The notes: generated by a model from the sequence alone, not told the origin. A DNA stretch of 64,000 nucleotides from an uncultured Heliobacteriaceae bacterium (GCA_964468345.1 CAYXVZ010000024.1:2632-66631), one strand, 5' to 3'; positions 16,885 through 52,462 are shown, counted from the stretch's first letter. Numbers and translations: made by a program.

Positions 16885-16926
16885 ATATCAAATTCCATTT
16901 GGGTGTATGGAAACTCCAGAACAGAT

Positions 16927-17012
16927 CCGCCACGAATATTCACGAATCGGCACGAATCGATACCCAAAACCAGTGTAGCGTCTCGTTCATTCGTGCTTAT
17001 CCGTGTGTATTC
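16927..17012. repeat. Palindromic repeat family B copy 1 (ccacgaatattcacgaat ... cattcgtg ... tattcgtgg)
   Basis: Inverted arms ccgccacgaatattcacgaatcggcacgaatcg / cattcgtgcttatccgtgtgtattcgtggcgg. Confidence 0.6.
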
Positions 17013-17042
17013 GTGGCGGCTTATACACGATATTGCAAACAG

Positions 17043-17206
17043 ACCTAGATCAAATTTCATTTCGGCGTATGGAAAATGCAGGAATTTTTGGCCACGAATA
17101 TTCACGGATAAACACCAATGATCCCCGGGAGGTGGCATAGCGACTCATTCGTGAATATTCGTGTGCATTCGTGGCTGACCATACGTGCAACTGAAAACCT
17201 ATCTAA
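17043..17206. repeat. Palindromic MITE-like repeat family B copy 2, with terminal inverted repeats
   Basis: Core gccacgaatattcacggataaacaccaatga ... tcattcgtgaatattcgtgtgcattcgtggc. Outer TIR cctagatcaaatttcatttcggcgtatgg / ccatacgtgcaactgaaaacctatctaaatcagg. About 85% identical to 22541..22696. Confidence 0.7.
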
Positions 17207-17343
17207 ATCAGGAAAAGCAAGAAAGTCTCAACACCGAAGAGCACGAAGAAGAGAGAGAAGGCTTTTTCGTTCGTCTTTCTTCGTGCTCTTCGTTTCTTCG
17301 TGGTAAAAGCATTGTCCCAAAGTTGTTCGCACCGACTTAGAAC
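17203..17343. repeat. MITE/REP-like repeat family A copy 2. It abuts the TBDR stop codon at 17337.
   Basis: ctaaatcaggaaaagcaagaaagtctcaacaccgaagagcacgaagaag ... cttcgtgctcttcgtttcttcgtggtaaaagcattgtcccaaagttgttcgcaccgacttagaacg. Confidence 0.7.
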
Positions 17344-20300
17344 GAAAGTCGAATTGCGAATTGTCCGACGCGGTTGCCGCCCGCGTCCGCGCCGCGCGCG
17401 CTGGTGATGACGCCGAAAGACGCATTCGAGATATTCGTCCCCGGATCTGCCAGATTCGGATGGTTCGGCAGGTTTGTGAAAGACCCCTCGAATTTCAATC
17501 CGATGCGTTCGGTGATGCGGAAATCCTTGGCCAGTCCCATCGAAAGATTGATGGCGCCCGGGCCGACCAGTGTGCCGACGCCTGCCGTGCCGAAACGGCC
17601 GATCGGCGCAACGCCGGCGCAGTTGAATTGGTTGGCCTGCCCAACCGTTCCGCCCGGGCAGGTGAAGGCAGATCGATTGAACCAGCGATCGGCCGTCGGA
17701 CTCTCCAGATTGCCATCCTGGCCGGCCACAAGATCGGGACGCTGGCTGCCGCGAGAGGGGCCGTTCGTGCCCGATGGATCGCCGTTGCCGATGGTCGGCG
17801 TCAGAAAGGTTCCGGTCTGCACGAGAAAGATGCTGCTCAATCGCCATCCGCCCAGCACTGCGTTCACAAAAGGATTCCAGTTTGCGCCATAGGCTTTCCC
17901 TTTGCCGAAGGGCAGGTCGTATAGCGTCGTCGTGATCCAGCGATGACGGCGATTGAACCCGACATTGCCGCGATCGCCGCGGCGATTGAGCGAATTGGAG
18001 ACGCGACCTCCGCCATTCTCTGCTGAAAAGCCCGGCGAAGCCGGTCCCATCGCGTCTGAGAGATTTTTTGAAAACGTCCATGCGCTCTGCAGTGTGAAGC
18101 CATTGCGCAGGCGACGTGAAGCCTCGACCTGGAACGCGTTATAAATGCTGTTCGCGCCCGTATCGCGGCTATAGATGATGTTCCAGTTCGGGAACGGCCG
18201 ATCCGTCAAAGGCCGCGATGCGAATGGCGTTGTGCTCGGCAGCGGCTGATTCAGATCCGGCGCAAAAGGCAGCTGCACGCCGCGCATTCCGATGTAGGAA
18301 AGACGAAGCCCGAGATTCCAACCGATCTCGCGCTCGACCGTCAGGTTCCATTGCATTGAATATGGATCCTGGAACTTGTCGTGATTCGCCGTGCGGAAGT
18401 CCGCTGTGCCCAGTGCGGAGGTCCGCGCGCCGCCCGCCCGCGTATTGGGCCATGAATATGCCGGGCCTGTCGCCGTCTGCGAATTGACGAATTCGCGCAC
18501 ATCCGAACTGGTCGATGCTGTCAGCGAATAAAAGACGCTGCCCAGAATTGTCATGGTGTAAACGCCAAAGCCGCCGCGAACGACCGTCTTGCCATTATCG
18601 AAAGGCCGATAGGCAAAGCCGAAGCGCGGATTGAAATTTCTCTTGTCCGTGAAGCGAAGCCCTTCCGGAAAGCCGGCGTCTTTGGCCGATAGCACAGGCG
18701 TACACGGGACGCCGAGCGCGGAATTGGGCGCCGGGCAGGCGTTGATCACCGATAAAAACGATTGCGGCGTGATCGCCAATGCTTTCGGATTGCTTGGGAT
18801 AATCACCCGGCCGGTGCGCGGCGTGTTCCGATCGAAGTTGCCGATATTGAAGTTCTTGTCCTGAAAGGGCGGATGCAGTTCGTACCGCAGACCGTATTCC
18901 AGTGTCAGTTTCGGATTGATCTTGAAACTGTCCTGTCCGTAAAAGTGGTAATGATTGGCCACGCCTTCGACGTCCACGTTGACGACCGCGACCGTTGTCG
19001 AAGCGGGCAACCCCAGCAGGAAGTCCGCGAAATCGTTGCCCGTAAAGATGCCGCGAAAGTTATGCACCCCGGCATCGTCGCCACTGGTGAAACTGGTGAC
19101 GTCGTTCGTTCCCAGGCGCCGATAATCCACGCCGAACTTGAAAGTGTGGCGTCCCCGGCTCCATGTCGTGTTGTTGTTGAACTGGTAGAGGGAAGATTCG
19201 ACCTTGTTCCGGTTGTTGCTCAGGTTCGATGTGATGCCGCTGAATACGATATTGGGCAGCACGTCCTGCCGCAGGTTTCCAAGACCCGTCAGGCCCAGGC
19301 TATTGGTGAAAGCGATCGTGTCGAAGGGCAGCGTTGCGCCGCTGTCCCGATAGGTCCGGCCGAACCGGAATTCATTAAGCAGCGAAGACGAAATCGTATA
19401 GTTGTGCGAAAGCACCAGATTCCGGTTTTTCTCAAACACCGTGCGCGACGGGAGCGCAAGATTCGATGGCGCCGTCTGATCGATGTTTTTCCAGGTGTAG
19501 CGACCGAAGATCGATTGTTTGCCGGTCAGGTTATGATCGATGCGAATATCGAATTGATTCGATTCGATCGGCGAGGGACGATTGATGCGGAAATTTCCCA
19601 CCGTCGCATTGAAGTTAGGCTGCGGATAGAGCTCGAGAATTTTTTTTGCAGCTGGCGCGATGCGATTGTCGGGAATCGTATTGTTCGCGAAATTGGTTCT
19701 GGTCAAGGGATCGAGAATCGCCGTTGTGAACACGCCCCGACGCAGGTCCGCCGTGGGCACGGTGTTCTGAATGGTCGAGGAACTGCGAAAACGCATTCCT
19801 TCATAAGCGCCCAGAAAGAAGGTGCGATCCTTGAAAATCGGGCCGCTGAAGGTTCCGCCGAACGTATTCGCTACTTTGCCGGGTTTGCTCGGCGATCCCA
19901 GCGGCTTGGCGTCGAGCGCCGCATTCTGATGATAGTTAAAGGCCGCGCCGTGAAACTGATTCGTCCCGCCCTTCGACGTGGTCGTGATATCCGCGACCTG
20001 CCCGTATTCGGCGTTGTTTCCGACGGCCTGGACCTTCATTTCGCTGATCGATTCGGCGGAAGGGAAATTGTCCCGCAGCGGGCCGTTGCTGCGGATGTTG
20101 ACGGTCGAGATGCCGTCCACGCTGACTTCGGTCTGGTGCGGCAGCGCGCCCTGAATCGAAAAATTGAATCCATTGTCCGATTGCACGCCCGGCAAGGCCG
20201 AAAGCAGATTGTATGGACTGGTGCTGCGATTCCCGCGGAAGTTTGCGGGCAGAGAAAGAACCTTTTGCGCATCGAAGCTCGATGAGATCGTTTGGGTCTC

Positions 20301-22364: not shown

Positions 22365-22389
22365 GGGGCCTCGCGTGTATGTCTAAGAA

Positions 22390-22548
22390 CTAAATCAGGC
22401 CAAGCAAGAGAGGCACAAATCACGAAGAAACGAAGATCACGAAGAAAAGATAGAAGGGATAATTCATGCGTCTTTCTTCGTGTTCTTCGTTTCTTCGTGG
22501 TAAAAGCTTTGCCCCAAAGTTGATTGCACTGATTTAGATCGGATTTCT
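22390..22548. repeat. MITE/REP-like repeat family A copy 3
   Basis: ctaaatcaggccaagcaagagaggcacaaatcacgaagaaacgaagatcacgaagaaaag ... ctttcttcgtgttcttcgtttcttcgtggtaaaagctttgccccaaagttgattgcactgatttagatc. Confidence 0.7.
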
Positions 22549-22696
22549 TCTGCAAGTGTGGACGTCCCGAGAATTTTTGCCACGAATATTCACGAATGAA
22601 CACCAATGAACTTCAGCAAACATGGCGTCATTTGTGCATATTCGTGAGCATTCGTGGCTGACCATACATGCAACTGCAAACCGATCTAAATCCGAT
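22541..22696. repeat. MITE-like repeat family B copy 3. It shares its terminal ttagatc with the adjacent family A copy.
   Basis: gatttagatcggatttcttctgcaagtgtgg ... gccacgaatattcacgaatgaacaccaatga ... cattcgtggctgaccatacatgcaactgcaaaccgatctaaatc. TIR confirmed by reverse-complement comparison. Confidence 0.7.
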
Positions 22697-27146: not shown

Positions 27147-27307
27147 TCCCTCGCTCGGATCCTATTGCTTTGTATTGAGATTATGAGGCGTTCAAAAGGA
27201 AAGGTACTGTAGAAATTTTAACTGCGAGTTAGGACGGGGTTAATTCTTTCTTCTGTTCTGCACAACGATGAAATCAAAAGGCAAGAGGGTATTTACTCAC
27301 GAATTTT

Positions 27308-29023
27308 CGTCCCGGAGGAGATCGCTTAAAAAGTTGCCACCAGCGCCTTCAAGTTGTACGGTACGCAGATCGTGAATTGTTACAGGAAACCACCATGCTC
27401 AAAAACACCTATGAAGTTGAATTGACTCCATTCGACCATCAGGTCTTTGAGACGTTTGTGCCAGCCAATCATTATCTGCGCCAGCTCAAAGCCGCTATTG
27501 ATTTTACTCCCATTCGCAGTCTGGTGGCCGACTGCTACTCCCCCGATCAAGGCCGCGGCGCAATTGACCCGATCCTCCTGATCAAGTTGTCACTTTTACA
27601 GTTTCAATACGATCTGTCGGATGATGGGGTCTTGCGACAAACGCAGGTCGACACCGCCTTTCGGTATTTTCTCGATTGGCCGGCACACAGACCGCTGCCC
27701 GAGCCAAGCCTTCTGTCACAATTTCGGAAGCGACTCTCGGCCGATCGCTTTACCAGAATCTTCAACGAAATTCTCCGACAGGCACGCGCCAATGGATTGG
27801 TAAAGGATCGTCTGCGCCTGAAAGACGCCACTCATCTGATCGCCAATATCGCGGTGCCTTCTACGATTCGGCTTGTTGCCCAGACCCGAGAGCAACTGCT
27901 TTCCGCTGCCGAAGCCTTTGCGCCAGAGCAAGTCGCTCAATATCGGCAAGAGGCGCTCGAGATTCGGCAAACAACTACGGACCTGAAAGATAATGCGCGA
28001 TTGCTCGCGCGCGTCAATCAATTGCGGGTTCTGGTCCAATGGGCCACGGACTGGCAAGAGCGCCTGGACCAAGGCTCGACGTTAGTATCGTCCGATGTTC
28101 ACCAGTCCTTTGTTGCAGCCCTGGCAATCGCACGCAAAGTGATTGGAGATCGCGAGCCAAAAGCGAAAGATCAACTCCGTGCTTTGACCGACACCGACGT
28201 GCGTCGCAGCTATCACGGCGAGTATTACGACGGCTACCTGCTCGATCTGAGCGTAGACGCCGACTCCGGTTTGATTTGCGCGCTGGATGTATTGCCGGCT
28301 AACGCCGACGAAGCCGCAAGTGCCAAGAGTCTGATCGAAAGCGAAGAAGCCGCGCACGGCAATGACATCGAAAGTCTTTCGATGGATTCGATTGGCTACA
28401 ACGGTCCGGCACTTAAAGCGTTGAGCGATGAAGCGGGCGGCCCTCAACTCCAGGTATTTGTTCCCCCCAAGCCTGATTGGTCGGCCACACCAGAACTCTA
28501 TCAACCGGTTGATTTCAAGCTGAACGAAGCGGGCGACGAACTGACTTGCCCAGATGGAAAAACAACACGCAGCCGGCATCGCGACGCGAAAAATCACGGC
28601 TGGGTCTATAACTTCAAAGCCAGTTTATGTGACACCTGCCCGCTGCGTGCCAATTGTATAAAAGCCGACAAGCGTGGCGGTCGCCAAGTATCAAAGAACG
28701 ATTTTCAACCGCAATACGAAGCTGCCAAAGAACGAGCGACGAGTGAAGAGTACAAACAGGTCCGCAAAGAGCACCCCGCAGTCGAAAGGAAACTTGGGGA
28801 ACTGGTACGATGGCACAACGGGAGGCGCGTCCGGTATCGAGGCCGCTTGCGCGTCAAAGTGCAATATCTCCTGCTCGGAATCGTCGCCAACTGCAAACGT
28901 TTTCTCCGCCTCTTAACGGCTGCGCCTGCTGCGCAGCCCGCTTAAGTCGCGGGCAAGAATAAGTGCCGCAGTCTGTCGAGTCGCTGCTTACTTCAGACTT
29001 TTTAAGCAATCTCCGGAGGGACG
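27308..29023 (+). mobile_element. IS1182/IS5-family insertion sequence (about 1.7 kb) with 26-bp imperfect terminal inverted repeats
   Basis: Left end cgtcccggaggagatcgcttaaaaag (27308-27333). Right end ctttttaagcaatctccggagggacg (28998-29023). The reverse complement matches the left end at 22 of 26 positions (a central 3-nt block is internally inverted). Single transposase ORF inside. Confidence 0.6.
27395..28945 (+). CDS. IS1182/IS5-family DDE transposase
   Basis: N-terminal InsH-type domain (ILLIKLSLLQFQYDLSDDGVLRQTQVDTAFRYFLDW), DDE region, C-terminal Cys-rich zinc-ribbon-like tail (CPDGKT...CDTCPLRANC). ATG at 27395; an alternative TTG is at 27377. Confidence 0.8.
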   Translation: MLKNTYEVELTPFDHQVFETFVPANHYLRQLKAAIDFTPIRSLVADCYSPDQGRGAIDPILLIKLSLLQFQYDLSDDGVLRQTQVDTAFRYFLDWPAHRPLPEPSLLSQFRKRLSADRFTRIFNEILRQARANGLVKDRLRLKDATHLIANIAVPSTIRLVAQTREQLLSAAEAFAPEQVAQYRQEALEIRQTTTDLKDNARLLARVNQLRVLVQWATDWQERLDQGSTLVSSDVHQSFVAALAIARKVIGDREPKAKDQLRALTDTDVRRSYHGEYYDGYLLDLSVDADSGLICALDVLPANADEAASAKSLIESEEAAHGNDIESLSMDSIGYNGPALKALSDEAGGPQLQVFVPPKPDWSATPELYQPVDFKLNEAGDELTCPDGKTTRSRHRDAKNHGWVYNFKASLCDTCPLRANCIKADKRGGRQVSKNDFQPQYEAAKERATSEEYKQVRKEHPAVERKLGELVRWHNGRRVRYRGRLRVKVQYLLLGIVANCKRFLRLLTAAPAAQPA

Positions 29024-29188
29024 ATGTGAATGTAGGCAGGCCGTTTACGGCCTGTGACGATAGTCAAATGACCGCGTCCCGTAGGGACGCAACGAATCAA
29101 TGCATCCAATTTCGCACCGTCCCGATGGGACGGTGAAATTTATAATTGCATTTACAGGCCGTAAACGGCCTGCCTACATTCACATCGT
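29021..29188. repeat. Complex palindromic element: perfect 35-bp inverted arms (acgatgtgaatgtaggcaggccgtttacggcctgt) around a 98-bp spacer, with nested hairpins
   Basis: Arms 29021-29055 and 29154-29188 are exact reverse complements. Each arm contains its own hairpin caggccgtttacggcctg. The spacer holds cgtcccgtagggacg and ccgtcccgatgggacgg hairpins. The left arm overlaps the IS right terminal repeat. Confidence 0.7.
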
Positions 29189-29427
29189 GCCTCCGGGACG
29201 GAGAGCCCGTGAGTAATTACCTCCAAATAGGACATGGACTTTGCATATTGCTAACATAAATATTACTTAGGCTGAGTTGGTAATTGATGATAATTTTACA
29301 ATAACTTATCGTAATAAAAATGGACATGCCGGTTACTATAGGTGTTTGTTGCTTGTTTAGTCCAACCTCGAAAAAGAACGCGTAAGAAACTCACATTACC
29401 AACCCTGATTGCTGGAGGTCCATTTCC

Positions 29428-31857: not shown

Positions 31858-31875
31858 CTCCAGGCGATGGCAATC

Positions 31876-31925
31876 GCGCCGGATGAATAACAGCACAATT
31901 CCTGTTACTCATCCGGCGCTATTAC
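31876..31925 (+). terminator. Rho-independent-type terminator hairpin after the phytase-like gene
   Basis: 18-bp stem gcgccggatgaataacag / ctgttactcatccggcgc (one mismatch), 8-nt loop, followed by a T-containing tail (tattaccattgg). Confidence 0.5.
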
Positions 31926-31945
31926 CATTGGTGATTCTTGTGAGA

Positions 31946-32092
31946 GCTAAATCAGAACAACCAGCCTTGGGACAACGCTTTTACCACGAAGAAACGAAGA
32001 GCACGAAGAAAGAGGCATGAAATCTGCTTTCTCTCTTTTCTTCGTGCTCTTCGTTTCTTCGTGGTTGTGCCTTTCTTCCCTGGCTTGATTTT
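31946..32092. repeat. MITE/REP-like repeat family A copy 4
   Basis: gctaaatcagaacaaccagccttgggacaacgcttttaccacgaagaaacgaagagcacgaagaaag ... ttcttcgtgctcttcgtttcttcgtggttgtgcctttcttccctggcttgattttgtcc. Confidence 0.7.
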
Positions 32093-32287
32093 GTCCTCTG
32101 CAATGAAAGGCACGTGGAATGCAAATTATTAACATGTTTCTGATGTGTTACTGATTTCAATTTAACGCCCACCTGCCAGACTTCCTTTTTCGAAAATTCT
32201 TCCATCGAAGTTACACGATTCAAAATCAAAAATAAGATCCAGGACAGATTCCGAAAAAGAAATCTATCTTGTGAGAAGGAGTGTGAG

Positions 32288-35185
32288 ATGACCGGCAGGA
32301 AGTCGTTCATATTGATTGTCCGGACTGTATTCATATGCGGGTTGCTGTGGATTGCGCCCAATGCCTGGGCGCAAGGGCAGGCCATCGATGGCATTATCGA
32401 AGGCTTTGTGAAATCGGAGAACGCCGCGCCCGCGGCGGGGGCAATGGTGCGGGCCGTGAATCAGGGAACCGGTTTTTCGCGCGAAGCCACAACGGACACC
32501 GCGGGCCGTTATTCGTTGCCGCTCTTGCCGCCGGGAACGTATGTCGTCACGGCTGAAACGAACGGATTGCCGAAGGCGACACGTTCGAATGTGGAGTTGC
32601 GCGCGGGCCAGGTCTTGACGGTCGAATTCGAACTCCGTGCAGCCAATATTGCGGAAACCATACAGGTTACGGCGCAGATTCCGCTGGTGGAGACGGGGCG
32701 GACCGTCATCAGCAACACCTATGACGAGCGGACCGTGCGCAGCATTCCAACGGTGGGCCGAAGCCTGCTCGACTTTTTCGTGCTGCAACCGGGCGTGAAT
32801 GCGCGGCCGATTTCCACAGGCGGCTCAGGCACGGGAACGCCGACGACGGTGTATGGCGGGCTGGGACTTCGCCAGATGAATGTGGACGGCGTTTCGAACA
32901 ATTTGCAGGGCGGCGCGCGCAATCTGGTGATCAGCCAGGAAGCGATCCAGGAGTTTCAAACAGTCACGAATTTCTCTGCTGAATTCGGCCGCGTCGGCGG
33001 CGGATTACAAAATGCCTTCACACGAGCGGGAGCCAATGACTGGCACGGATCCGCTTATCTTTTCAGCCGCCAGCGGTTCCTGAGCGCGAAGCCCTTTCTG
33101 CTTGCGCCTTCGGCGCCGAAGCCGGAATTTTCCCGCTACAATTATGGCGGTACGGGCAGCGGCCCGATCGTTCGGGATCGCGCCTTCTTTTTCGTTTCGT
33201 ATGAACGCTGGATGCAGGATCTGCCGGGCGTTTCGACCATTACCTCGACGAATGCCGCGGCGCTTGGAATTCCGCAAAGCAGCATCGGCGCGATCAATCA
33301 GACCTTTCGCGCGCATACGCTGACGGCGCGCGCCGATGCGCAATTGAATGCCGACAACCGGCTCTTCGCAAGATACAACTACTATTTCGATCGCGAATCG
33401 CCGCTGGGCAGCGGCCTGCAGTCGCTCGAAACGCTGGCGCGCTTTGACGAAGATCCGCACTCGGCCACGGCGCAACTCGTCACGACGATCAGCCCGCGCA
33501 TTCTCAATGAAGCCCGTTTCCTGTTCGCCACGCGCGGCATCAGCAACGGGGTTCCCAATCCGGATGCGCCGAACATCAATATCAGCGGCGTCGGCAGTTT
33601 CAATGGAAACTCGAACGGCACGCGCGTGACGCGCGAGCAGGGATTTCAGATCATCGACAACCTGTCGATCAATCTGGGCCGTCATTTCATCAAGACGGGG
33701 TTTGATCTGCTGCCCGTCAAGTTTCGCGAGCGCACGACCAATATCAACGGGACCTTCACCTTCGGCGGCCTGGCCGCGGTCGCGAATGTACGCGGGGCCA
33801 TCTCTCCGCTCGATCAGTTTCTGTTGACCGAACGCGGCGCAATCGATCCGGCGACCAATCGGCCGTATTCCTATTCGCGCTTTACACAGTCGGTCGGCAA
33901 GGAGTTTTTCGAAGCCAGCGTTTTCAACCAGGGCTATTTCCTGCAGGACGATATTCGCGTGAACAATCGGTTGAAGATCAACCTGGGATTGCGCTACGAA
34001 CTGTTCCTGCGGCCTGAGGGCAATCTGAATCCGGACCTGCCTGCCACCGGTGTGATTCCGCAGGATTACAATAACTTTGCTCCGCGCATCGGCATCGCCT
34101 GGGATCCGTTCGGCACTGGAAAGACGGTTCTTCGCGGCGGCTACGGCATTTATTACAACACGACGGTTGCACAGACCTTCAATACCTTCCTGCGCAGCAA
34201 CGGCCGCGATTCGATCAACATCAATGTCACGCCGGCCACGCCGGGCGCCCCTGCCTTTACACGAAACAAGGTCACACAACCGGCCGGCGTTTCGGTTATC
34301 TCGGACGTGCGGGTGTTCAATTCCGAATTCGACGATGTGACGACGCATAACTTCTATTTCACCGGCGAGCAGGAATTGATGCGGGATCTTTCGCTCTCGG
34401 TGACGTATCAGGGAACGCGGGGCCGCAACCTGCCCGTGGCCTTCAATACGAATCTGGCGCAGGCGGGGACCTTGCCGGATGGGCGCCGTCGCTGGACGTC
34501 GACCGGCCGGCCCGATCCGCGGTTCGGCAATATCTTCGTCTCAAACTCGATCGGCGAGCAGGATTATCATGGAATGATCGCGATGTTGACTAAACGGTTC
34601 TCGCGGGGATTTTCGTTCCAGGCTTCCTACCATCTATCGAAAACGAACGGCGCGGCATTCGCGGATGATTTCACGGGCTTCGGCATTTTCACCTCGCCCT
34701 CCGATCCGCTGGATCTCTCGGTCGATCGCGGCCGCGGCGATTTCGATATGCGCAATCGATTCACCCTGACCGGCGTGGCGGAAACGAAATTCGCCCGTCT
34801 GAGCGGCCTTGCGGCAGCCGTGATCAACAACTGGCAGCTTTCGAGCCGCGTCATCCTTTCAGACGGCTTCGCCTTCAATGCCACCACGGGCGCTGACACG
34901 AACGGCGATTCGATCTTCAACGATCGGCCGAGCGGCGTTGCTTACAATGCTTATACGCTGCCGGGGTATGCCACGCTCGACCTGCGCTTGTCCCGCATCT
35001 TGCCGCTCGGAGAAAAGATGCGATTGGAATTGATCGGCGAAGGCTTCAACCTGACCAATCGCCTCAATCCGACCGGCGTCAATCGCGTCTTCGGTCCGAA
35101 TGCGACCCCGAACGCCAATTTCAATACCGTCACGTCGGCGGAAACGGCCCGCCAGTTTCAACTCGCGGCGCGCTTCAGTTTTTAA
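32288..35185 (+). CDS. TonB-dependent receptor-like outer membrane protein with a CarboxypepD_reg-like N-terminal domain
   Basis: Signal peptide. IEGFVKSENAAPAAGAMVRAVNQGTGFSREATTDTAGRYSLPLLPPGTYVV. 965 aa, C-terminal ...QFQLAARFSF. AGGAG Shine-Dalgarno. Confidence 0.85.
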   Translation: MTGRKSFILIVRTVFICGLLWIAPNAWAQGQAIDGIIEGFVKSENAAPAAGAMVRAVNQGTGFSREATTDTAGRYSLPLLPPGTYVVTAETNGLPKATRSNVELRAGQVLTVEFELRAANIAETIQVTAQIPLVETGRTVISNTYDERTVRSIPTVGRSLLDFFVLQPGVNARPISTGGSGTGTPTTVYGGLGLRQMNVDGVSNNLQGGARNLVISQEAIQEFQTVTNFSAEFGRVGGGLQNAFTRAGANDWHGSAYLFSRQRFLSAKPFLLAPSAPKPEFSRYNYGGTGSGPIVRDRAFFFVSYERWMQDLPGVSTITSTNAAALGIPQSSIGAINQTFRAHTLTARADAQLNADNRLFARYNYYFDRESPLGSGLQSLETLARFDEDPHSATAQLVTTISPRILNEARFLFATRGISNGVPNPDAPNINISGVGSFNGNSNGTRVTREQGFQIIDNLSINLGRHFIKTGFDLLPVKFRERTTNINGTFTFGGLAAVANVRGAISPLDQFLLTERGAIDPATNRPYSYSRFTQSVGKEFFEASVFNQGYFLQDDIRVNNRLKINLGLRYELFLRPEGNLNPDLPATGVIPQDYNNFAPRIGIAWDPFGTGKTVLRGGYGIYYNTTVAQTFNTFLRSNGRDSININVTPATPGAPAFTRNKVTQPAGVSVISDVRVFNSEFDDVTTHNFYFTGEQELMRDLSLSVTYQGTRGRNLPVAFNTNLAQAGTLPDGRRRWTSTGRPDPRFGNIFVSNSIGEQDYHGMIAMLTKRFSRGFSFQASYHLSKTNGAAFADDFTGFGIFTSPSDPLDLSVDRGRGDFDMRNRFTLTGVAETKFARLSGLAAAVINNWQLSSRVILSDGFAFNATTGADTNGDSIFNDRPSGVAYNAYTLPGYATLDLRLSRILPLGEKMRLELIGEGFNLTNRLNPTGVNRVFGPNATPNANFNTVTSAETARQFQLAARFSF

Positions 35186-35296
35186 CTTAGAACAAGCAAG
35201 AAATGGCTCAGAAAGATTTACCACGAAGAGAAGAAAGGTGCAGGAAGGATGCCTTCTCTCTCTTCTTCGTGGTTTGTGCTTTTCTTGCTTAGTGCT
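35186..35296. repeat. MITE/REP-like repeat family A copy 5 (short variant), immediately 3' of the TBDR stop
   Basis: cttagaacaagcaagaaatggctcagaaagatttaccacgaagagaagaaagg ... ccttctctctcttcttcgtggtttgtgcttttcttgcttagtgctc. Confidence 0.6.
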
Positions 35297-35426: not shown

Positions 35427-35545
35427 GAAGAGAGAAATGGAAATAACGGAACAAACGAAAAAGAAGGGCTGTCTATTCCGGCTGCTCCGTTATTTCCGTT
35501 TGTTCCGTTTTTCTCGTTTATCGTTTTGGTTGCGCATTCGCCGCT
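35427..35545. repeat. Palindromic repeat family D copy 2
   Basis: ggaaataacggaacaaacgaaaaag ... ccgttatttccgtttgttccgtttttctcgtttatcgttttggttgcgcattcgcc. Homologous to 308..425. Confidence 0.6.
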
Positions 35546-40100: not shown

Positions 40101-40901
40101 GTCGGTCACTCGATCTATCACTCGTTCCAGACCGATGTTCGCGGGCGGATGTCGCGGCGCGCGATCTGGAATCTGGCCTATACCTTCAGCAAGTCGCTCG
40201 ACAATATTTCTTCCGATACCGATCAGGCGCAGCACGACAACACGCGACTGTTTTTGAACCGTGGTCGCTCGAACTTCGATCGTCCGCACCGGCTGAATGC
40301 ATCCTTTGTATTCGATCTGCCGGGCACGAAAGGCGCGCAGAAAATTTTGAACGGGTTGACCAACGGGTGGCGCTTCAGCGGCCTGCTGACGATGCAGTCC
40401 GGTTCGCCCTTCACGGTGCTGGGCGCGGCGGCGCGCAATGCCTATCAGTTCCAGGTGGCCAGCGTTCGCCCCAGCCTCGCGCCGGGCCGCACGCTGGATT
40501 CAGCCGTCAAGAGCGGGCGCATTCAAGACCGGCTCGGCTTCGGCACGAACGACCAGTTCTTCGATCCGACCGCTTTCATCAACTCGGAAGATCAATGGGG
40601 CAATGCGGGGCGCAATACGCTGCGCGGTCCCCGGCAGACGCAGATGGACATTTCGGTCGCCAAGACGACGAAGCTGCGCGAATCGCTGGGCCTCGAATTC
40701 CGCTGGGAGATGTTCAACTTCACGAACACGCCCATCTTCGGGAATCCCTCTTCAACGCTGGCCGGCGGGGGCGCCTGCATTCCCTCGCCGTCGCGGCAGT
40801 GCGATCCGACGAACACGACGGCCATCGGCACCATCGGCCGCATCACCTCCACCGTCGGCGGACCCCGCACGATGCAGGGCTCGCTGCGGTTGACGTTTTA
40901 A
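37125..40901 (+). CDS. TonB-dependent receptor-like outer membrane protein (1258 aa) with a CarboxypepD_reg-like N-terminal domain
   Basis: Signal peptide. VIEGTVEDANGGKLPNAVVKAFNENNGTSLQVTTDSEGSFRFPSLPLGKYRV. C-terminal ...GSLRLTF. GAGGAGG Shine-Dalgarno. Confidence 0.85.
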   Translation: MRSAGSSFYGRSCAFFQQLLLVAFILASLCVAASAQTGLGVIEGTVEDANGGKLPNAVVKAFNENNGTSLQVTTDSEGSFRFPSLPLGKYRVEITLGGFAKKIANEVTVDPVNPAKLSVVMVPAGVAEIVNISSDGQLLQTENSTQAATLTAKELTELPTPSRNVTHLIVSEPGVSAPLPDRTGAGLNIATTPGTQAEDSVQSLNPSVNGARPTNNSLRLNGVDGTNLLNRGGGLGNNLIVPLDSLEVVTVQSALYNSPTGRNGGGNIELVTRTGTNQFHGTAAHFLQNEKFNANEFFLNRNGNGRPKFRRNETSAAFGGPILKDKLFFFANVQRTDFLSGYASNATARVGLPVGLTDVRTRESIADVANQYLRNGQADNATFAANFLTRLRAFPADQQSGLFQKFFGTTNPNTNNLVFRTLTAADIHPVAVNILNQKREGKFLIPSPTPDMRILPGNGAFGREQFLQQVIPTEVNSWAGVGSLQWTPREKDRFRLNYNQSTSNVLEAFGWADSSPSPTDGQTKGWSTSLSHQHTFGANLVNDLRIGFFDLSNNRLARNQDIKNSTLGIFNPLEALGGLAALMPTIDITTQFSSGGIGNAWDFYDRQKVYNFINTLSYVRSRHAMQFGAEYRRMNLTGEFQSRTNGDLDYDTWALFFTGHGAAGGGSDLDQGDTRRNMTAQDISWYVHDDWKVRKGLTLNLGMRYDFFGNFTDSDGRLGTFITPALSKETGLPVGYQVPENSLIFNQGFKPLDIGLYVEPGTPIDLRMINKSKTASTLFDDYNNFAPRLGFAWSPSFLPKFVLRGGYSIFYERTSASYKVDLQRAAPFFIYQNVPAPVDMANPYPRLNINPFVLPFNVAIARNANGTPRWIRGDGREFPATEPFGAKSNVYIHPKIKAPYMQQWSLNTQYEVTRGIALDLRYVGSRGVGLIGRYNVAQAIDPRVTAVNGFTDIRDRNRSTANPDGALINPDFFVPTEFLGLSRSGGFVQVANVGHSIYHSFQTDVRGRMSRRAIWNLAYTFSKSLDNISSDTDQAQHDNTRLFLNRGRSNFDRPHRLNASFVFDLPGTKGAQKILNGLTNGWRFSGLLTMQSGSPFTVLGAAARNAYQFQVASVRPSLAPGRTLDSAVKSGRIQDRLGFGTNDQFFDPTAFINSEDQWGNAGRNTLRGPRQTQMDISVAKTTKLRESLGLEFRWEMFNFTNTPIFGNPSSTLAGGGACIPSPSRQCDPTNTTAIGTIGRITSTVGGPRTMQGSLRLTF

Positions 40902-44124: not shown

Positions 44125-44365
44125 ATCGGTTTTTCACTTGTGTGTAGAGAATTTTCAGACGGCGGACAGGAATATAAACGACAAGAAAATAAAAGCAGCA
44201 TGGAGAAACATTCTCCGGTTGTTTAGATCGGATTTCATTTGCTTGTATGGATAGCCACGCAGTCACCGCCAGAGACAGAGCTATGAGAGAGCGCTTCCAG
44301 AGCGTCCTTTGCTCGTCTCCGTGTCTGCGGTGCCTTCGTGGCAAAATCCAGGCAAACCAAGGATT

Positions 44366-46873: not shown

Positions 46874-49540
46874 ATGAAAACATTGAGTGCCGTTCTCATC
46901 GCTATCGTGTTTGCGCTGCCCTCGCTGGCGCAGACGGTCGAAAAACCTTCCCGTTCCGTGACCGATCCGGGCGTTGTCACGACGCGGCAGAACATCACGC
47001 CGGCGGGCGTGCCGACGGTCTTTGATGGGCGCGTGTACGGCGTCAGCTTCGGCGAGAAGTCGAACGAAATTTACGCGTTGACCGCGCGAGGCCGCGCGAG
47101 CGGAACGCAGGTCTACAAACTCGATTGGCAGGGAAACAGGATTCTCAATCGGCAGACCCTGAAGGAAAGTCCCGGCCTGCAAGGGCTGTTGTTCGATCCC
47201 GTCACGAAACATGTGTTGATCAGCGCTTCGCTCGGCGAACGCGAAACGGCCGACCCCAAGGGGCTGCGCCGATCGCCGAATGTGCATCCGGACGGCAAAG
47301 AATCTTTTCTGGAATTATCCGGCGGCGCGCGCCTGTTGACGATGAGCGACGGCAATGTGCGCGGCATTCTCGAAGGCATCGGCAATTTCATCACCGGCGC
47401 GCCCGCGGTCGCGGCGAAAAATAATGCCAGAGGGCAGCGCCTCGCGATCGTGCCATTGATTTACAACAATCAGCTGGCCGTCATCGACCTCAACGGCCCG
47501 GGGCTGATCGGCCGGCCCGCGGTCGGCATCGCGCCGTTCGGCGCGGCGATCAATGCCGACGGCAGCGTGGCGTATGTGACGAACTGGGGCGGCCGGTTGC
47601 CCAAACCAGGCGATTTGACGGCGCCGACGGGCCTCGATCCGAAAGCCGATCAGGTCGTGGTGGATGAACGCGGCATCGCCTCGACCGGCACGGTCACGCG
47701 CATCGACCTCGCCACGATGAAGCCCACGCACACCATCGCTGTCGAATTGCACCCGACAGGCATCGTCTGGGATGAAGAGCGCCAGCGCCTGTATGTCGCC
47801 AACGGCAACAAGGACTCGGTGTCGGTGATCGATACGGCAAAGCAGACGGTGCTGCGAACGATCTCGCTGCGCCCAGCGGGCTTGAAGCTCACCGGCGTCG
47901 CGCCGACGGCGCTCGCCGTCTCCGCGGATGGTTCGACGCTCTATGCTGCATGCGGCGGATTGAATGCCGTTGCGGTGGTGAACGCAAATGACGGCGCGAT
48001 CGCGGGCTGGATTCCGAGCGGCTGGTATCCATCCTCGCTGTCCCTAAGCCCCGATGGCAAGCACCTCGCAATCGGCGCGCTGCTCGGCGCGGGATCGAGC
48101 TGGCGCGAAGAGCCGCGCAAACGCTTTGTGCACGCCTATCGGGGCAGCGTCAGCGTCGTCGCGCTCCCCGATCGCGCGCAGCTCAACAGCTATACGACGG
48201 CCGTGCTCGAAAATAATCACCTGACGCAGCTGACCGCGGCAGCCTCGCGGACGGCGCCGAATGCGACGCCCGCCGCCGTGCCGGCGCGCGCGGGCGATGC
48301 TTCGCTGATCGAGCACGTCGTCTATATCATCAAGGAAAACCGCACCTATGATCAGGTGTTCGGCGATATGGAGAAGGGAAATGGCGATCCGAGCCTGGTA
48401 ATGTTCGGGAACGATGTGACGCCGAATCATCACCGGCTGGCTGATCAGTTCGTGCTGCTCGACAATTTTTACGCCACAGGCGGCAACAGCGGCGACGGTC
48501 ATCAATGGGCCACGCAGGCCAATGAAACCGCGTATTGCATGTGGCCGGGCTATGTGGGCCGCAGCTATCCTTTCGACGGCACCGATCCGATTGCCTATTC
48601 CGACGGCGCTTTCATCTGGGATGCGGCGCTGCGCATGAAAAAGACGGCGCGCGTCTTCGGCGAATATGCGGGGCGGTTGCCGGAAAGCGACAAGGAGCAG
48701 CGCAATAAGCTGTTCGAGCGATGGAGAAAGGGCGAAGACTTCACCAAAGATTGGAACATTACAGCGCCGATCAAGCCGCTGAATCAGATTCTGGCCAAAA
48801 ACTATCCTGCTTATACGCAGTCGATTCCCGACGTCGTTCGCGCGCAGATATTCAAAGCCGAATTGAAAGAATGGGAAAAGGCCGGGCAGATGCCGAATCT
48901 GGTCGTGCTGCAATTGCCCTCCGATCACACGCGCGGCACGACGCCCGGCGCGAATACGCCGCGCGCAATGGTCGCGGACAACGACCTCGCGCTCGGCCAG
49001 ATCGTGGAAGCCCTTTCGAAAACGCCCTTCTGGAAAAAGATGGCGATCTTCGTGGTGGAAGACGATGCGCAGAACGGCGTCGATCACGTCGACGGGCATC
49101 GAACGGTCGCGCTGGCCATCAGTCCCTACATTCGCCGGGGATCAGTCGATTCGACCTTTTATTCGAATCAGAGCATGGTCAAAACGATTGAGCTGATGCT
49201 GGGGTTGCCGACGCTGTCGCTGTTCGACCTGATTGCGAATGATATGCGGGCGAGCTTCACGAACACGCCGGATTTCACGCCTTATCAGGCCGTGGAGCCG
49301 CAACAGTCGATCTTCGAGTTGAATCCCTCGCTCAAAGCCCTGCGCGGCGCGGCCCGCCGCGATGCGATGGCTTCGATGCGAATGCGATTCGATGTGCCGG
49401 ATGCAGTGCCGACCGAAACGCTCAACCGGATTGTCTGGCGGCAGGTCAAGGGAGCAAACATCCCTTACCCGCGCGTTCGCCAGTCGGCCTTCGCTCCCCT
49501 GGCTCTTGATATCGAGGACGATGATCGCGATGAGCGATAA
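46874..49540 (+). CDS. Secreted fusion protein: an N-terminal YVTN-type beta-propeller plus a C-terminal phosphoesterase-family domain (non-haemolytic phospholipase C / acid phosphatase AcpA family)
   Basis: Signal peptide MKTLSAVLIAIVFALPSLA. Propeller repeats (LYVANGNKDSVSVIDTAKQTVLRTISL, STLYAACGGLNAVAVVN). Phosphoesterase-family core HVVYIIKENRTYDQVFGDM and later conserved blocks. Confidence 0.72.
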   Translation: MKTLSAVLIAIVFALPSLAQTVEKPSRSVTDPGVVTTRQNITPAGVPTVFDGRVYGVSFGEKSNEIYALTARGRASGTQVYKLDWQGNRILNRQTLKESPGLQGLLFDPVTKHVLISASLGERETADPKGLRRSPNVHPDGKESFLELSGGARLLTMSDGNVRGILEGIGNFITGAPAVAAKNNARGQRLAIVPLIYNNQLAVIDLNGPGLIGRPAVGIAPFGAAINADGSVAYVTNWGGRLPKPGDLTAPTGLDPKADQVVVDERGIASTGTVTRIDLATMKPTHTIAVELHPTGIVWDEERQRLYVANGNKDSVSVIDTAKQTVLRTISLRPAGLKLTGVAPTALAVSADGSTLYAACGGLNAVAVVNANDGAIAGWIPSGWYPSSLSLSPDGKHLAIGALLGAGSSWREEPRKRFVHAYRGSVSVVALPDRAQLNSYTTAVLENNHLTQLTAAASRTAPNATPAAVPARAGDASLIEHVVYIIKENRTYDQVFGDMEKGNGDPSLVMFGNDVTPNHHRLADQFVLLDNFYATGGNSGDGHQWATQANETAYCMWPGYVGRSYPFDGTDPIAYSDGAFIWDAALRMKKTARVFGEYAGRLPESDKEQRNKLFERWRKGEDFTKDWNITAPIKPLNQILAKNYPAYTQSIPDVVRAQIFKAELKEWEKAGQMPNLVVLQLPSDHTRGTTPGANTPRAMVADNDLALGQIVEALSKTPFWKKMAIFVVEDDAQNGVDHVDGHRTVALAISPYIRRGSVDSTFYSNQSMVKTIELMLGLPTLSLFDLIANDMRASFTNTPDFTPYQAVEPQQSIFELNPSLKALRGAARRDAMASMRMRFDVPDAVPTETLNRIVWRQVKGANIPYPRVRQSAFAPLALDIEDDDRDER

Positions 49541-49680
49541 CCTTATCGATCAATCCTGGCCGGGAATAGCCGCAGCGCATGGCGCGAACGGCTATGAAAG
49601 ACTTGCTTCAACGTCTTGACCTGAGTGTATCCCTCTTTCCGGAAAGTTCATGGCCGGATTTTCAGTTCAAGACTCTTGCG

Positions 49681-49722
49681 GGAGAGCCGTCGATGAGGCG
49701 GCTCTCCCTTTTTTCTTTTTGC
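49681..49722 (+). terminator. Rho-independent terminator after the beta-propeller/phosphoesterase gene
   Basis: ggagagccg-tcgatgagg-cggctctcc hairpin (9-bp stem) immediately followed by cttttttcttttt. Confidence 0.6.
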
Positions 49723-49725
49723 ATC

Positions 49726-49850
49726 GAATTCAAGAAAAAGAATTTCATCCACGAAGTCACACGGAGGCGAAAGCAAGACCGGATTCATTGGCCCTTGTGG
49801 TTTGCTTCGTGCTCCTTTGTGTGACTTCGTGAATGATCTTATTCTTTGAA
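49726..49850. repeat. Inverted-repeat element family A' (complete copy)
   Basis: Left arm gaattcaagaaaaagaatttcatccacgaagtcacac. Right arm gtgtgacttcgtgaatgatcttattctttgaa is its reverse complement. The left arm is identical to 2323..2360. Confidence 0.65.
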
Positions 49851-49926
49851 TCTGAGTATTCTGTAAACTGAGTTTTCTTGCAATTTTCCATAGCTTTCAT
49901 CGAATCAGTCTTCAAATCACATGAAA

Positions 49927-50012
49927 ATTCAACACAAAGGTTCAAAGGCTCAAAGGGACAAAGAGTCTTCTGCAAGGGGCTCTTTGTCCCTTTGAGCCTT
50001 TGAACCTTTGTC
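49927..50012. repeat. Perfect 32-bp-arm palindrome (acaaaggttcaaaggctcaaagggacaaagag / ctctttgtccctttgagcctttgaacctttgt) with a 15-nt loop
   Basis: The arms are exact reverse complements. It lies in the convergent gap between the phosphoesterase gene and phoX. Confidence 0.75.
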
Positions 50013-50118
50013 TTGAATTTTCATGGCTATTTGCCCATCCGAATAAAAAATACGCCTGGAAAAACACAAGAAAACTTTGTTTACAATGTACTGAGGCGGT
50101 CAGGAAAATGTTTCTTCC

Positions 50119-50153
50119 TAAAAAAGAAACGGGGCGGTTCGAAAACCACCCCG
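50119..50153 (-). terminator. Rho-independent terminator of phoX (minus strand)
   Basis: Minus strand reads ggggtggttttcgaaccgcccc (GC-rich hairpin) followed by gtttcttttttagg, directly 3' of the phoX stop. Confidence 0.55.
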
Positions 50154-50195
50154 ATAAGGAACCACCAATGGCAGCAAGACTCGAAAGGGACGCAA

Positions 50196-52145
50196 TCAGC
50201 GCCCGATGATGCGGGAGCCGGCCGTGTTTTCAACCACAATGACGGTCGGCCGCGGAACATCGCCATCCGGGAATCGGCTGGTCGGATTGCTGAGCAAACT
50301 TCCCTCGGCCGGGTGCTGGATGGAAGCGAAGAGGAAAAGATCATTCGGCCCGAAGGCGAGACTGGCGACTTCGCCGCCGGGAACGCCGCTCAGCAACTGT
50401 CGCGCATAACCGCGTTCCGGGCCCGCCGTCGGCACGGCATAGATGCCGTCATTTCTGCGGAAGGTGTTGATCTGTCCATCCGTCGCAATCCACAGGTTGC
50501 CGAAACGATCGAAGGTAATATTGTCCGGGGAGGAAATCGCGCTGACCGGCCCTGTCCAACCTGCCCAGTATGTGCCTTCCGTCGCCACCGCGGGATCGCC
50601 GCAGAGCATGAAGATCTCCCATTTGAACGTCGTCGAGGTCGGATCGTTTTTGTCTTCGGTCAATTCGATGATGTGTCCGTGGCGGTTGTTTGCGCGCGGA
50701 TTGGCTTTGTTCACGGCATTGGCGCCCGTGGCCGCGCGCTGCGTGTTGTTCGTCATCACGCAATAAACCTTGCCGTTGACCGGATTGGTTTCGATGTCTT
50801 CCGGGCGATCCATTCTGGTCGCACCCACTGCATCCCCCGCAAGGCGCGTGTTGATGCAGATCTCTGCTTGGGTCCAGTTCGCCAGCGCTCCTTGCCCGGC
50901 GACCAGCGGAATCCAGGCGCCGGTTCCATCGTCGTTGAACTTCGCGACATAAAGCGTCCCCTCATCGAGCAGGTCGCCGTTGGCCGCGCCCTTCGTCTGA
51001 TCGTACTGGCCCTTCGTTACAAACTTGTACATGTAATCGAAGCGCTGGTCATCTCCCGAATAAGCCACCACGCGCTGATCGGGAGCGATGACAAAGGTTG
51101 CGGCTTCGTGTTTGAAACGGCCGAGCGCGGTCCGCTTTTTGGGCGGCGTGTTCGGATTGAAAGGATCGATCTCGACCGCATAGCCGAAACGGAACGCTTC
51201 GTTCGGCTCTTTCGAAATGTCGAAGCGGTCATAAAAGTCTTCCCAGCGGCGTTCGCTCGATCCATTGGGAAGGCCATAGCGGGCCAGCATCGCGCGGCGG
51301 CGATCGGTCGTGGGCAACTGTCCGAGATTCGCAAAGTATTGATCGAAGTTTTCCTCGCAGGTGACGATCGTATTCCAGGGGGTGACGCCGCCGCCGCAGT
51401 TGTTAAGCATCCCGCGAACGCGCGTGCCCGTCGGATCATACGAGGTCTTGAGCAGGTCGTTACCGGCCGCGGGGCCCGTAATCCAGCAAACTGTTTCGCC
51501 CGTTATGCGGCGGTTGAATCGCGAGAAGATATCGATGGCCCATTCTCCGCCCGTTTCGAAAAATCCGCGGCGACGACGGCGATCGAGCTGCACGATGGAC
51601 CCGCCGTGCGCGGCCAGTTCGATGGCGACCTGCTCGGCCGTCGGTTTGCCGGGCACATATCCCGGGAACATCAGTTCCGGATTTGTATATTCATGGTTGA
51701 CCCACATCAGGCCCGTTTCATCCCGACGCAGGCGCGAGAAGGGATTGGTCGGGAATTCCAGGAAATACAAAAAGTCGCAGTTGTAACCGAACTGCCGGTT
51801 CTGCGCGGAGGCCGATTGCGTACTGATATTGAAGGCGGGCGCGCCCGCAAAGATCGGATCGCCCCATCGCAGCAGCGGCCGCGCCGCATAGCCGGGCGAA
51901 AGCGTGATCTTGTCGGTCGAATCGAGCGAAATCGGCGTGAACGTAATCGGTCCCGTGGACGCCGCCTGCGCCGCATTTGCCTCGATCGTACTTATCGCGT
52001 CGATCACCAGCATCGACGCGGAAACCGCCGCTCCCTTGAGGAACTCCCTGCGCGCCAATCGACGCGTCATGACTTCTTGAAATGTGTCGTTGTGTGACCC
52101 GTTGTCGATTGCATTGTCACTCTTGTCTTCTTTTGAAATGCGCAT
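50196..52145 (-). CDS. phoX: Alkaline phosphatase PhoX (DUF839 beta-propeller phosphatase), Tat-secreted
   Basis: Twin-arginine signal TRRLARREFLKGAAVSASML. PhoX core NNCGGGVTPWNTIVTCEENF. AAGGAG Shine-Dalgarno before the ATG at 52145. An alternative start MTRRL at 52070 would give a canonical short Tat n-region. Confidence 0.85.
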   Translation of the reverse strand: MRISKEDKSDNAIDNGSHNDTFQEVMTRRLARREFLKGAAVSASMLVIDAISTIEANAAQAASTGPITFTPISLDSTDKITLSPGYAARPLLRWGDPIFAGAPAFNISTQSASAQNRQFGYNCDFLYFLEFPTNPFSRLRRDETGLMWVNHEYTNPELMFPGYVPGKPTAEQVAIELAAHGGSIVQLDRRRRRGFFETGGEWAIDIFSRFNRRITGETVCWITGPAAGNDLLKTSYDPTGTRVRGMLNNCGGGVTPWNTIVTCEENFDQYFANLGQLPTTDRRRAMLARYGLPNGSSERRWEDFYDRFDISKEPNEAFRFGYAVEIDPFNPNTPPKKRTALGRFKHEAATFVIAPDQRVVAYSGDDQRFDYMYKFVTKGQYDQTKGAANGDLLDEGTLYVAKFNDDGTGAWIPLVAGQGALANWTQAEICINTRLAGDAVGATRMDRPEDIETNPVNGKVYCVMTNNTQRAATGANAVNKANPRANNRHGHIIELTEDKNDPTSTTFKWEIFMLCGDPAVATEGTYWAGWTGPVSAISSPDNITFDRFGNLWIATDGQINTFRRNDGIYAVPTAGPERGYARQLLSGVPGGEVASLAFGPNDLFLFASIQHPAEGSLLSNPTSRFPDGDVPRPTVIVVENTAGSRIIGR

Positions 52146-52312
52146 CCCTAACTCCTTGATTGTATTTCGATGGTGAAAACGCCAGGAGAGATTCGTCCTG
52201 GATATCCGCTACCCAGTGATGGACGATATTCCTATCGGCAAATTGCAAAGGATTGATTGGCGCAGTGTAGAGAAGGGGAATTAAATGCAGGTCAGCAGAG
52301 TGTCAAGTTAGT

Positions 52313-52462
52313 TTTAAATCAGAACAGGCAAGAAAGGCGCAACCCCGAAGAAACGAAGAGCACGAAGAAAGATTGAAGGCATACTGTATGCGTCTTTCTT
52401 CGTGCTCTTCGTTTCTTCGGGGTAAAAACTTTGTCCGAAACTTGTTTGCACTGATTTAAATC
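52313..52462. repeat. MITE/REP-like repeat family A copy 7 (most complete; TTAA-flanked)
   Basis: ttttaaatcagaacaggcaagaaaggcgcaaccccgaagaaacgaagagcacgaagaaag ... ctttcttcgtgctcttcgtttcttcggggtaaaaactttgtccgaaacttgtttgcactgatttaaatc. Confidence 0.7.

Follow-up and report, generated by a model that had tools for sequence, protein, structure and literature searches.

Why should a set of palindromic repeats lie exactly at the stop codons of genes for TonB-dependent receptors (TBDRs)? The question is raised by a 64-kb stretch of DNA from an uncultured Heliobacteriaceae bacterium (GCA_964468345.1, CAYXVZ010000024.1:2632-66631). We call this whole stretch the window, and all coordinates are positions in it. 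An initial annotation had described its repeats as resembling MITEs (miniature inverted-repeat transposable elements) or repetitive extragenic palindromes (REPs), and had placed them at TBDR stop codons. Our analysis suggests, with a probability of about 0.68, that two repeat families (A and B), and probably a third (D), are recently active non-autonomous cut-and-paste transposons, that is, MITEs, which came to lie on stop codons through regeneration of the stop. The DNA probably comes from a soil Acidobacterium, in a Blastocatellia-like lineage of the Acidobacteriota. To follow individual copies, we compared the window with contigs of related strains (L042-L055; 82-99% identical to the window), which were found via 90%-identity clusters of window proteins.

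We found that the palindromic repeats are real and more diverse than had been described. The 29-nt core of family A (CCACGAAGAAACGAAGAGCACGAAGAAAG) gave nine arm matches at no more than three mismatches, compared with none in 100 shuffled sequences, and these matches pair as hairpin arms to form seven elements of 110-146 bp (Table 1). Family B, which is built of CACGAAT units, has three copies and two degenerate remnants, so the earlier counts of seven A and three B copies hold. Self-comparison and reading of the sequence yielded five further hairpin families, C-G, for a total of about 20 elements or fragments in 64 kb; the initial annotation, with at least four families and about 15 copies, had listed fewer families. 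Family D had been given two copies, and here the description needs correction, as D is single in the window. The elements are non-coding and measure 110-236 bp across families (110-165 bp for A and B), and together with insertion sequence (IS) DNA they account for about 4.2 kb of masked sequence, about 2 kb of which is a single IS block. Open reading frames (ORFs) crossing the elements are only translations of the repeat itself, including the HEETKSTKK peptides, which had rightly been called spurious, and no Pfam-matching ORF was found inside an element among the window ORFs. All copies in all families fold into very stable hairpins, with minimum free energies of -39 to -129 kcal/mol and z-scores of -3 to -15 relative to shuffled sequences.

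Families A and B are bounded by imperfect terminal inverted repeats (TIRs), in which TA is followed by AATCAG in A and by GATCGG in B, or in general by RATCRG; the termini of the two families are related, as had been proposed. The TIR of family B is about 28 nt long at both ends (TAGATCGGWTTTSCAKTTGCRTGTATGG). Family A has two alignable end types, X and Y, with Y being X into which about 8 nt are inserted; conservation over the initial TAAATC is at least 90%, and the tails are T-rich in X (TTGTGCCTTTCTT) and TAAAAGC in Y. Inside the TIRs lies a stem of 27-31 bp with three tandem units of 8-10 nt in each arm, namely CACGAAG-AAA / CGAAG-AG / CACGAAG in family A and, at a period of 10, CACGAAT in family B. 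Families C-F use other purine-rich units, the period varies from 7 to 10 nt by family, and the purine-rich arm comes first in every family. Units are gained and lost by slippage: B1 of strain L046 lacks one CACGAATCGG unit, A2 of the window lacks one 8-nt unit, and a second D copy, found at the A4 site of L049, is unequal, with extra CCTTTGAG units in one of its two arms. The units behave much like microsatellites, with gain or loss in a single arm between strains that are about 98% identical (16941-16960 and 17232-17250 in the window; 12576-12650 in L049).

Table 1. Repeat elements and insertion sequence of the window, with the gene boundaries that they touch and the bases that follow each stop codon.
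Feature	Position	Structure and context	Gene boundary; next bases
A1	6374-6512	X-type ends on both sides; between convergent genes	Right TA (6511-6512) within TAA stop (6510-6512, minus strand) of MGMT-like 118-aa gene; atcaa
B1	16884-17047		Left TA supplies the A of ATG of 199-aa gene (16882-16884, minus strand)
B2	17046-17205	One TA in common with B1 and one with A2; 91% identical to B3, 76% to B1	
A2	17204-17339	X...Y; left arm lacks one 8-nt subrepeat unit	Right TA within TAA stop (17337-17339, minus strand) of TBDR1; gtcgg
A3	22391-22536	X...Y; orthologous site empty in L044	
B3	22535-22688	TA in common with A3; no element at the L044 site	Right TA plus terminal base form TAG stop (22686-22688, minus strand) of 347-aa gene; atcgg
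A4	31948-32092	Y...X; upstream of TBDR2	
A5	35183-35291	Short	TAA stop (35183-35185) of TBDR2 is TA plus first A of element; cttag
A6	40899-~41025	Y-type left end, degraded right end	TAA stop (40899-40901) of TBDR3 is TA plus first A of element; atcgg
A7	52315-52458	Best-preserved A copy; X...Y; 31-bp perfect inner stem; in divergent region, PhoX / 382-aa gene	
B remnant	44122-~44190	Degenerate B-type end	Starts at TGA stop of TBDR4 (TTC TGA ATCGGTTTTTCAC...); atcgg
B remnant	44222-44262	Truncated piece of B left end	
C	49723-49851; half copy 2320-2379	Hairpin with CACGAAGTCA-type units in arms	
D	49857-50090	TA on both sides; outer TIR TTCTGTAAAC...; 46-bp inner hairpin of CAAAGG units	
E	2575-2670; degenerate second copy 55553-~55660	Hairpin, CAAAAGG units; another copy in L046-L048	
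F	copy 1, 310-429; copy 2, 35432-35545	Hairpin, AACGGAAC/AAACGAA units	
G	29013-29196	184-bp near-perfect hairpin reusing adjoining IS end sequence (CCGGAGGGACGA...)	
IS5/IS1182-type IS	27307-29024 (+)	Transposase gene 27377-28945	

All complete copies of A, B and D are bounded by TA. The initial annotation had read the flanks as YTAR target sites of an IS5-group transposase, and the 4-mers are indeed present; they are, however, mutually reverse complementary (CTAA...TTAG at A2 and A3, TTAG...CTAA at B3) and not direct repeats, so that TA is all that is directly repeated. This inversion argues against an IS5-type duplication of 4 bp. In the two A/B arrays (16884-17339 and 22391-22688), which had been correctly recognized, neighboring elements abut with a single TA in common, and this is true of each of the three abutting pairs (B1 and B2, B2 and A2, A3 and B3), as predicted if an element inserts into the flanking TA of a resident copy. 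The best-fitting reading of these junctions is a 2-bp TA duplication in the style of IS630/Tc1-mariner elements rather than a 4-bp one of the IS5 type. Separately, the target flank resembles an element end at two places, at B3 (22677-22696), which reads CCGATC-TA-AATCCGATC, and at positions 40-60 of strain L054, where the window has CCTGT-TA and the L054 element end has CCTGATT-TA; this likeness may be due to chance or to a target preference.

ATCRG, intact or degenerate, comes directly after six stop codons, those of the four TBDR genes, the 347-aa gene and the MGMT-like gene, and each of the six is made up of TA and the purine with which the element starts, the TGA of TBDR4 being one transition away from TAA. 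Elements stand at the stops of all four TBDR genes; the initial annotation, which gave three of them an element and the fourth a related fragment plus a hairpin, had understated the placement. Five of seven insertion clusters end in a stop-codon TA, compared with 14 of 232 (about 6%) of the non-coding, non-element TA sites (P about 1.5e-5); this count predates recognition of the TBDR4 remnant, and its background comes from a crude, greedy ORF map in which several ORFs are on the wrong strand. The association with stop codons is real and is not specific to TBDRs, as had been suggested, since two of the six genes are of other kinds and the same regions in related strains are empty or hold other elements. 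We attribute the TBDR link to the abundance of TBDR genes in what is a phosphate-scavenging island. Non-element spacer is nearly nil at A1 and at the B1-B2-A2 array, and the known empty-state spacer, which separates the stop of the 347-aa gene from the next ATG in L044, is only 11 nt long and reads stop, Shine-Dalgarno (SD) sequence, ATG. Such short spacers leave the stop-codon TA as nearly the sole harmless target. A comparison of element ends with ORF stops across all fetched loci yielded few complete ends.

In relatives some of the copies are missing, or their place is taken by others, which indicates that the elements moved recently. A3 and B3, 313 nt together, are absent from L044 (89-93% identical to the window), and the stop-side junction, cTA-TATCCGATCG in L044 and ...GATC TA AATCCGATCAC in the window, fits insertion at the stop-codon TA with one mismatch. 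The 430-nt intergenic region at 31858-32287 has three states among the strains. It holds A4 in the window; in L054/L055 the A4 site is empty (GCGAGA-TA-TGGTCC) and another A copy, whose end is ...CCTGATT-TA-GTCATCCGG as against CCTGT-TA-CTCATCCGG in the window, lies about 40 nt upstream; and in L049 a D element takes the place of A4. L044 and L049 also carry an A-core element with a different outer stem at a point where the window has 10 nt only. With small size and no coding capacity, TIRs, dispersed copies and presence/absence differences among strains (L044, L049, L054/L055), the repeats resemble MITEs in these respects, and the earlier description of them as MITE-like, non-autonomous elements in several families is borne out. 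In the intergenic region at 31858-32287, a separate hairpin with 27-nt arms (CCGGATGAATAACAG...CTGTTACTCATCCGG) occupies 31867-31928, 3' of a phytase-like gene, and the A copy of L054/L055 sits at the TA inside its 3' arm.

Element density varies by lineage, and we found no elements in the L050 (21 kb) and L045 (11 kb) contigs. Several short-read contigs of the relatives end inside hairpins (L042/L043, within A7, and L046, L051, L052 and L054/L055), as expected for multi-copy repeats. Annotators should thus treat both such contig breaks and the HEETKSTKK ORFs as repeat artefacts. Synteny with the relatives breaks at A1 (6355-6512), with the right breakpoint exactly at the TA of A1: after the PAS gene, L050 has phage tail and tape-measure genes in place of A1 and the MGMT-like and pst genes, and in L046-L048 an E-family hairpin comes next to the MGMT-like gene, on its far side. 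The block at 27266-29243, comprising the IS and G, is absent from L049, which has 176 unrelated nt instead.

Together, these findings suggest a simple course of events. The elements would insert at TA, most likely duplicating it as IS630/Tc1-mariner-type transposases do, with the transposase supplied in trans from elsewhere in the genome. Given a TA target and a purine as first base on either strand, insertion into the TA of TAA or TAG would remake the stop (TA+A or TA+G) and leave the protein unchanged, so that the insertion is silent. In tightly packed operons, the stop-codon TA would be almost the only harmless site for a 150-bp insertion; surviving copies would accumulate on stop codons, and later arrivals would enter the flanking TA of resident copies and build arrays. 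We infer that the pattern reflects a filter of tolerated insertions, aided by stop regeneration, and not a TBDR-specific function. If so, a TA target combined with a purine first base would be a rule simple enough to let a mobile element sit harmlessly on stop codons inside operons.

Several observations weigh against this explanation, in addition to the crude background of the enrichment count. Although TA is present at three empty sites in relatives, none of the empty/filled pairs has two clean junctions; at A3/B3 the left one contains 17 additional nt, and the A4 site has small indels, with the right-hand TA reading TT. TA could instead be part of the TIR, without any duplication. The single B of L046 is a chimera of a B1 body and a B2-type tail, and a recombination deletion between B1 and B2 is the more likely origin of this state as judged from the alignment. 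Family C lacks a flanking TA. A cognate transposase with the same TIRs was not found in the window or the fetched loci. The arms are 92% pairwise identical between window copies, compared with about 55% for the subterminal TIR region, so the inner hairpin is kept better than the region next to the ends, the reverse of what a plain MITE predicts. Loci in foreign genomes, likewise, have the hairpin in common with the window and not the flanks or termini. One candidate, a reading of the extra B2 of the window relative to L046 as a clean TA-duplicating insertion, was rejected after a four-way alignment. Separately, A7 matched no plasmid or phage in a BLAST search, and among viral contigs we found one solo A arm and 11 matches to a family B 16-mer that are coincidences within coding sequence.

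An alternative that we consider unlikely, and which is the reading of the initial annotation, is that the elements are kept at gene 3' ends as RNA elements, whether terminators, stabilizers or RNase III sites, which set the relative expression of neighboring cistrons, so that their placement is selected rather than tolerated. Very stable stems of 27-31 bp starting 30-45 nt past the stop, and six occupied stops that include those of all four TBDR genes, fit such a role. The A5 element in L054/L055 and the A6 junction in L052 are conserved in strains 93-98% identical, and Correia elements and enterobacterial repetitive intergenic consensus (ERIC) sequences offer precedents (PMC2229807). Orientation also has a pattern, in that A2, A3 and A4, the co-directional asymmetric copies, have the T-rich X tail (TTGTGCCTTTCTT) downstream of their hairpins, and A1 and A5, between convergent genes, have X-like tails at either side; the pattern is broken by A6, which has Y-type tails on both sides, and with four or five cases it is too small to weigh. 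A terminator scan returned 30 sites against 25.3 expected, which is the level of shuffled sequence, and its sole match inside an element was a stem of six pairs at the A5 tip (35243-35257), with no main A or B stem among the matches; the tool takes loops of 3-8 nt and is only partly applicable to these hairpins, whose loops are 14-30 nt. The elements also lack a proper U-tract. In addition, A4 and A7 lie in promoter regions and B1 abuts a start codon, and relatives lack A3/B3 and A4 or have another element there; these facts count against the alternative. Counts in a promoter scan of the window were at chance level, and Rfam gave no window match at gathering score, with only noise at E values up to 10; 13 foreign loci with the same hairpin gave tRNAs only. 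On the MITE reading, too, the 27-31-bp stems, once transcribed, could plausibly serve as RNase III substrates or RNA 3'-end barriers, as has been reported for Correia elements, and this would likely be a side effect; should the hairpins undergo processing in transcripts, operon expression would be reshaped in an island for phosphate scavenging (pst, PhoX, phytase-like, phospholipase C-like and TBDR genes).

The remaining alternatives concern parentage. Derivation from the IS5 group, with insertion at YTAR and a 4-bp duplication, could draw on the CTAA, TTAG, TTAA or CTAG in which the element ends are embedded and on the IS5/IS1182-type transposase of the window (522 aa, DUF772 and DDE_Tnp_1_6 domains), which is the only transposase there; some IS5 subgroups, moreover, are said to make duplications of 2-3 bp. 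We regard this origin, which the initial annotation favored, as very unlikely, since the flanking 4-mers are mirror-inverted, abutting elements have only TA in common and the 28-nt TIRs of the window IS, which start TCGTCCCGGAGG..., are unrelated to the A or B termini. A third copy resembling the IS end lies at 29183-29201, by the G hairpin. Highly improbable, too, is a REP- or REPIN-like origin, in which single-stranded hairpins are moved by a REP-associated tyrosine transposase (RAYT) or an IS200/IS605-type tyrosine transposase and the mobile unit is the inner hairpin rather than the TIR. Although the inner hairpin is the most conserved part and occurs bare, without extended TIRs, in Phycisphaerales contigs, the units that vary among strains include TA-bounded TIR shells, and the elements carry no GTAG or CGTC tag. 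Their stems of 27-31 bp and lengths of 110-165 bp also compare poorly with the 20-40 nt of REPs (PMC3733652), and a Pfam scan of 37 window ORFs gave no Y1_Tnp match and no IS630-type or Y1/RAYT transposase gene. Two further ideas were discarded: occurrences of CACGAAG units in the window are concentrated in hairpins, with periods that differ by family, and give no support to an operator or Pho-box-like function, and likenesses to DnaA boxes, ECF promoters, extended -10 elements and Mu ends had been noted by eye and were dropped as too weak.

The inner hairpin reaches well beyond the window and its relatives. A scan with the family A core, which sampled one genome per species, found at least 41 loci, mostly in metagenome-assembled genomes (MAGs) of Blastocatellia and otherwise in Planctomycetota, Phycisphaerales, Hydrogenedentales, Limisphaerales, Anabaena and Trichormus. 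The copies are thus not unique to the window; uniqueness was one of two findings that the initial annotation had said would refute it. The other, similarity confined to the CACGAAG hairpin without common termini, is what we see across distant genomes, whereas within the window the TIRs align. What the loci have in common is a string of about 30 nt, CTTCGTG-NN-CTTCGTTTCTTCGTGG, with its complement. A 20-mer that runs from the pyrimidine arm into the start of the Y end matches 34 metagenome contigs of 30-64% G+C, against about 2 matches expected by chance (a rough estimate), and nearly all of the 34 have a third CTTCGTG unit that lies outside the query. Of 22 distinct copies, 13 have an NN dinucleotide that is complementary between the arms, and four types of pair occur among them, which is mildly supportive of hairpin maintenance without being decisive.

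The contexts of these hairpins are varied, comprising bare hairpins, tandem arrays (L056, L070), solo arms and arms in reverse order. At at least 20 other Blastocatellia loci, the hairpin is followed by TTGATTTTC(C)GAGGAG-N3-10-ATG before different genes; the loci of this group are among L001-L041 (MAGs SMAG_U8955, U1379, U3747 and MFD06229). With a Shine-Dalgarno sequence at its end, 3-10 nt ahead of the start codon of at least 20 different genes, the element supplies the SD of the downstream gene. The other end of the group, read as its reverse complement, is TA-TTTTCGGAGGAG-TCGTTC-ATG followed by a 6-codon ORF, so that TTTTCGGAGGAG is a direct repeat at both ends. Reverse-order arms were found in L087 (two copies) and L058, where they lie between a stop codon and the SD-ATG that follows, with about 115 nt enclosed. 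The order there is stop, CTTCGTG x3-GGTAAAAAA, about 115 nt with a conserved GCGGCCAAAGGTCGC, and CACGAAG x3-AAAGAG-N7-ATG, and the arrangement fills the whole spacer before two different genes; it looks like long-range pairing around a 5' leader. Solo CTTCGTG arms in metagenomes were considered as ends of full-length transposons, a candidate that we rejected because, on reading the sequence, the ORFs downstream of ten of them look ordinary and not like transposases (for example ATPase, acetyl-CoA hydrolase-like, U32-type peptidase, HypB, aminotransferase and portal-like proteins).

From these observations we propose, tentatively and as a possibility only, that the CACGAAG-unit hairpin is a cross-phylum module in its own right and not just the interior of a local MITE. 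A hairpin conserved across phyla within termini that are not is the reverse of normal MITE evolution, and points to a binding partner or a route of propagation. If the proposal is true, the hairpin would have a sequence-specific partner, for example a transposase of wide distribution with subterminal CACGAAG units as its binding sites, or else an RNA or protein of the host; another possibility is that it would spread independently of the TIR shells. The elements would then also mimic gene-boundary signals, stop codon and SD alike, enabling life inside operons. Within the window, the biology is ordinary and neatly explained, and the cross-phylum hairpin is the part worth following.

As to the genes among which the elements lie, Pfam identifies the window (1-64000) as an island of the phosphate-starvation type. 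It holds pstSCAB-type genes together with PhoX and a phytase-like protein, a Zn phospholipase C-like protein and a phosphoesterase, and the four TBDRs, which are of the CarboxypepD_reg plus OMP_b-brl_4 type. An acyltransferase of the Acetyltransf_5/FeeM type, similar to N-acyl amino acid synthases, is also encoded and possibly has a role in phosphorus-free lipids. A large protein of 1098 aa with TPR repeats and a CHAT domain (59197-62493) is unrelated to the repeats.

Among known systems, a close parallel is offered by the Correia elements of Neisseria (also called NEMIS or CREE), which are processed by RNase III (PMC2229807). Like the elements described here, they are TA-targeting MITEs (100-155 bp) with many intergenic copies, long hairpins in transcripts and no identified transposase. 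A Correia TIR variant, tatagtggattaaatttaaatcaggacaa (PMC5039591), even has 13 nt (TAAATCAGGACAA) in common with the end of family A in L054, which is a string-level resemblance only. The differences are that Correia hosts belong to a different phylum, that the 13-mer is terminal in family A but internal to the TIR in Correia elements, and that Correia elements, unlike A and B, have no inner hairpin of tandem units; a preference of Correia elements for stop codons was not found in the literature searched. The RUP of Streptococcus pneumoniae is likewise a non-coding MITE (107 bp) that inserts at TA and is thought to be mobilized in trans by IS630-Spn1 (PMC2229807). It differs in having a known cognate IS with matching TIRs, and its sequence has no relation to those of the window.

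REPs measure 20-40 nt, bear a tag (GTAG or CGTC) and go together with RAYT genes (PMC3733652). The elements of the window resemble REPs, bacterial interspersed mosaic elements (BIMEs) and REPINs as abundant extragenic palindromes that lie mostly downstream of genes, for which roles in mRNA stability and termination have been proposed in the case of REPs, but they share neither the tag nor the length and are accompanied by no RAYT gene in the window. No MITE matching these families was found in the literature searched, and the core string occurred in no paper. The short tandemly repeated repetitive (STRR) heptamers of heterocystous cyanobacteria are tandem intergenic units of about 7 nt, which form simple arrays and are not paired as inverted copies within TIR-bounded elements. 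The arms of families A-F resemble them as runs of 7-10-nt units gained and lost by slippage, although the unit sequences differ. Altogether, the elements work like the Correia, RUP and ERIC-type MITEs, and not like REPs, REPINs or derivatives of the IS5 type.

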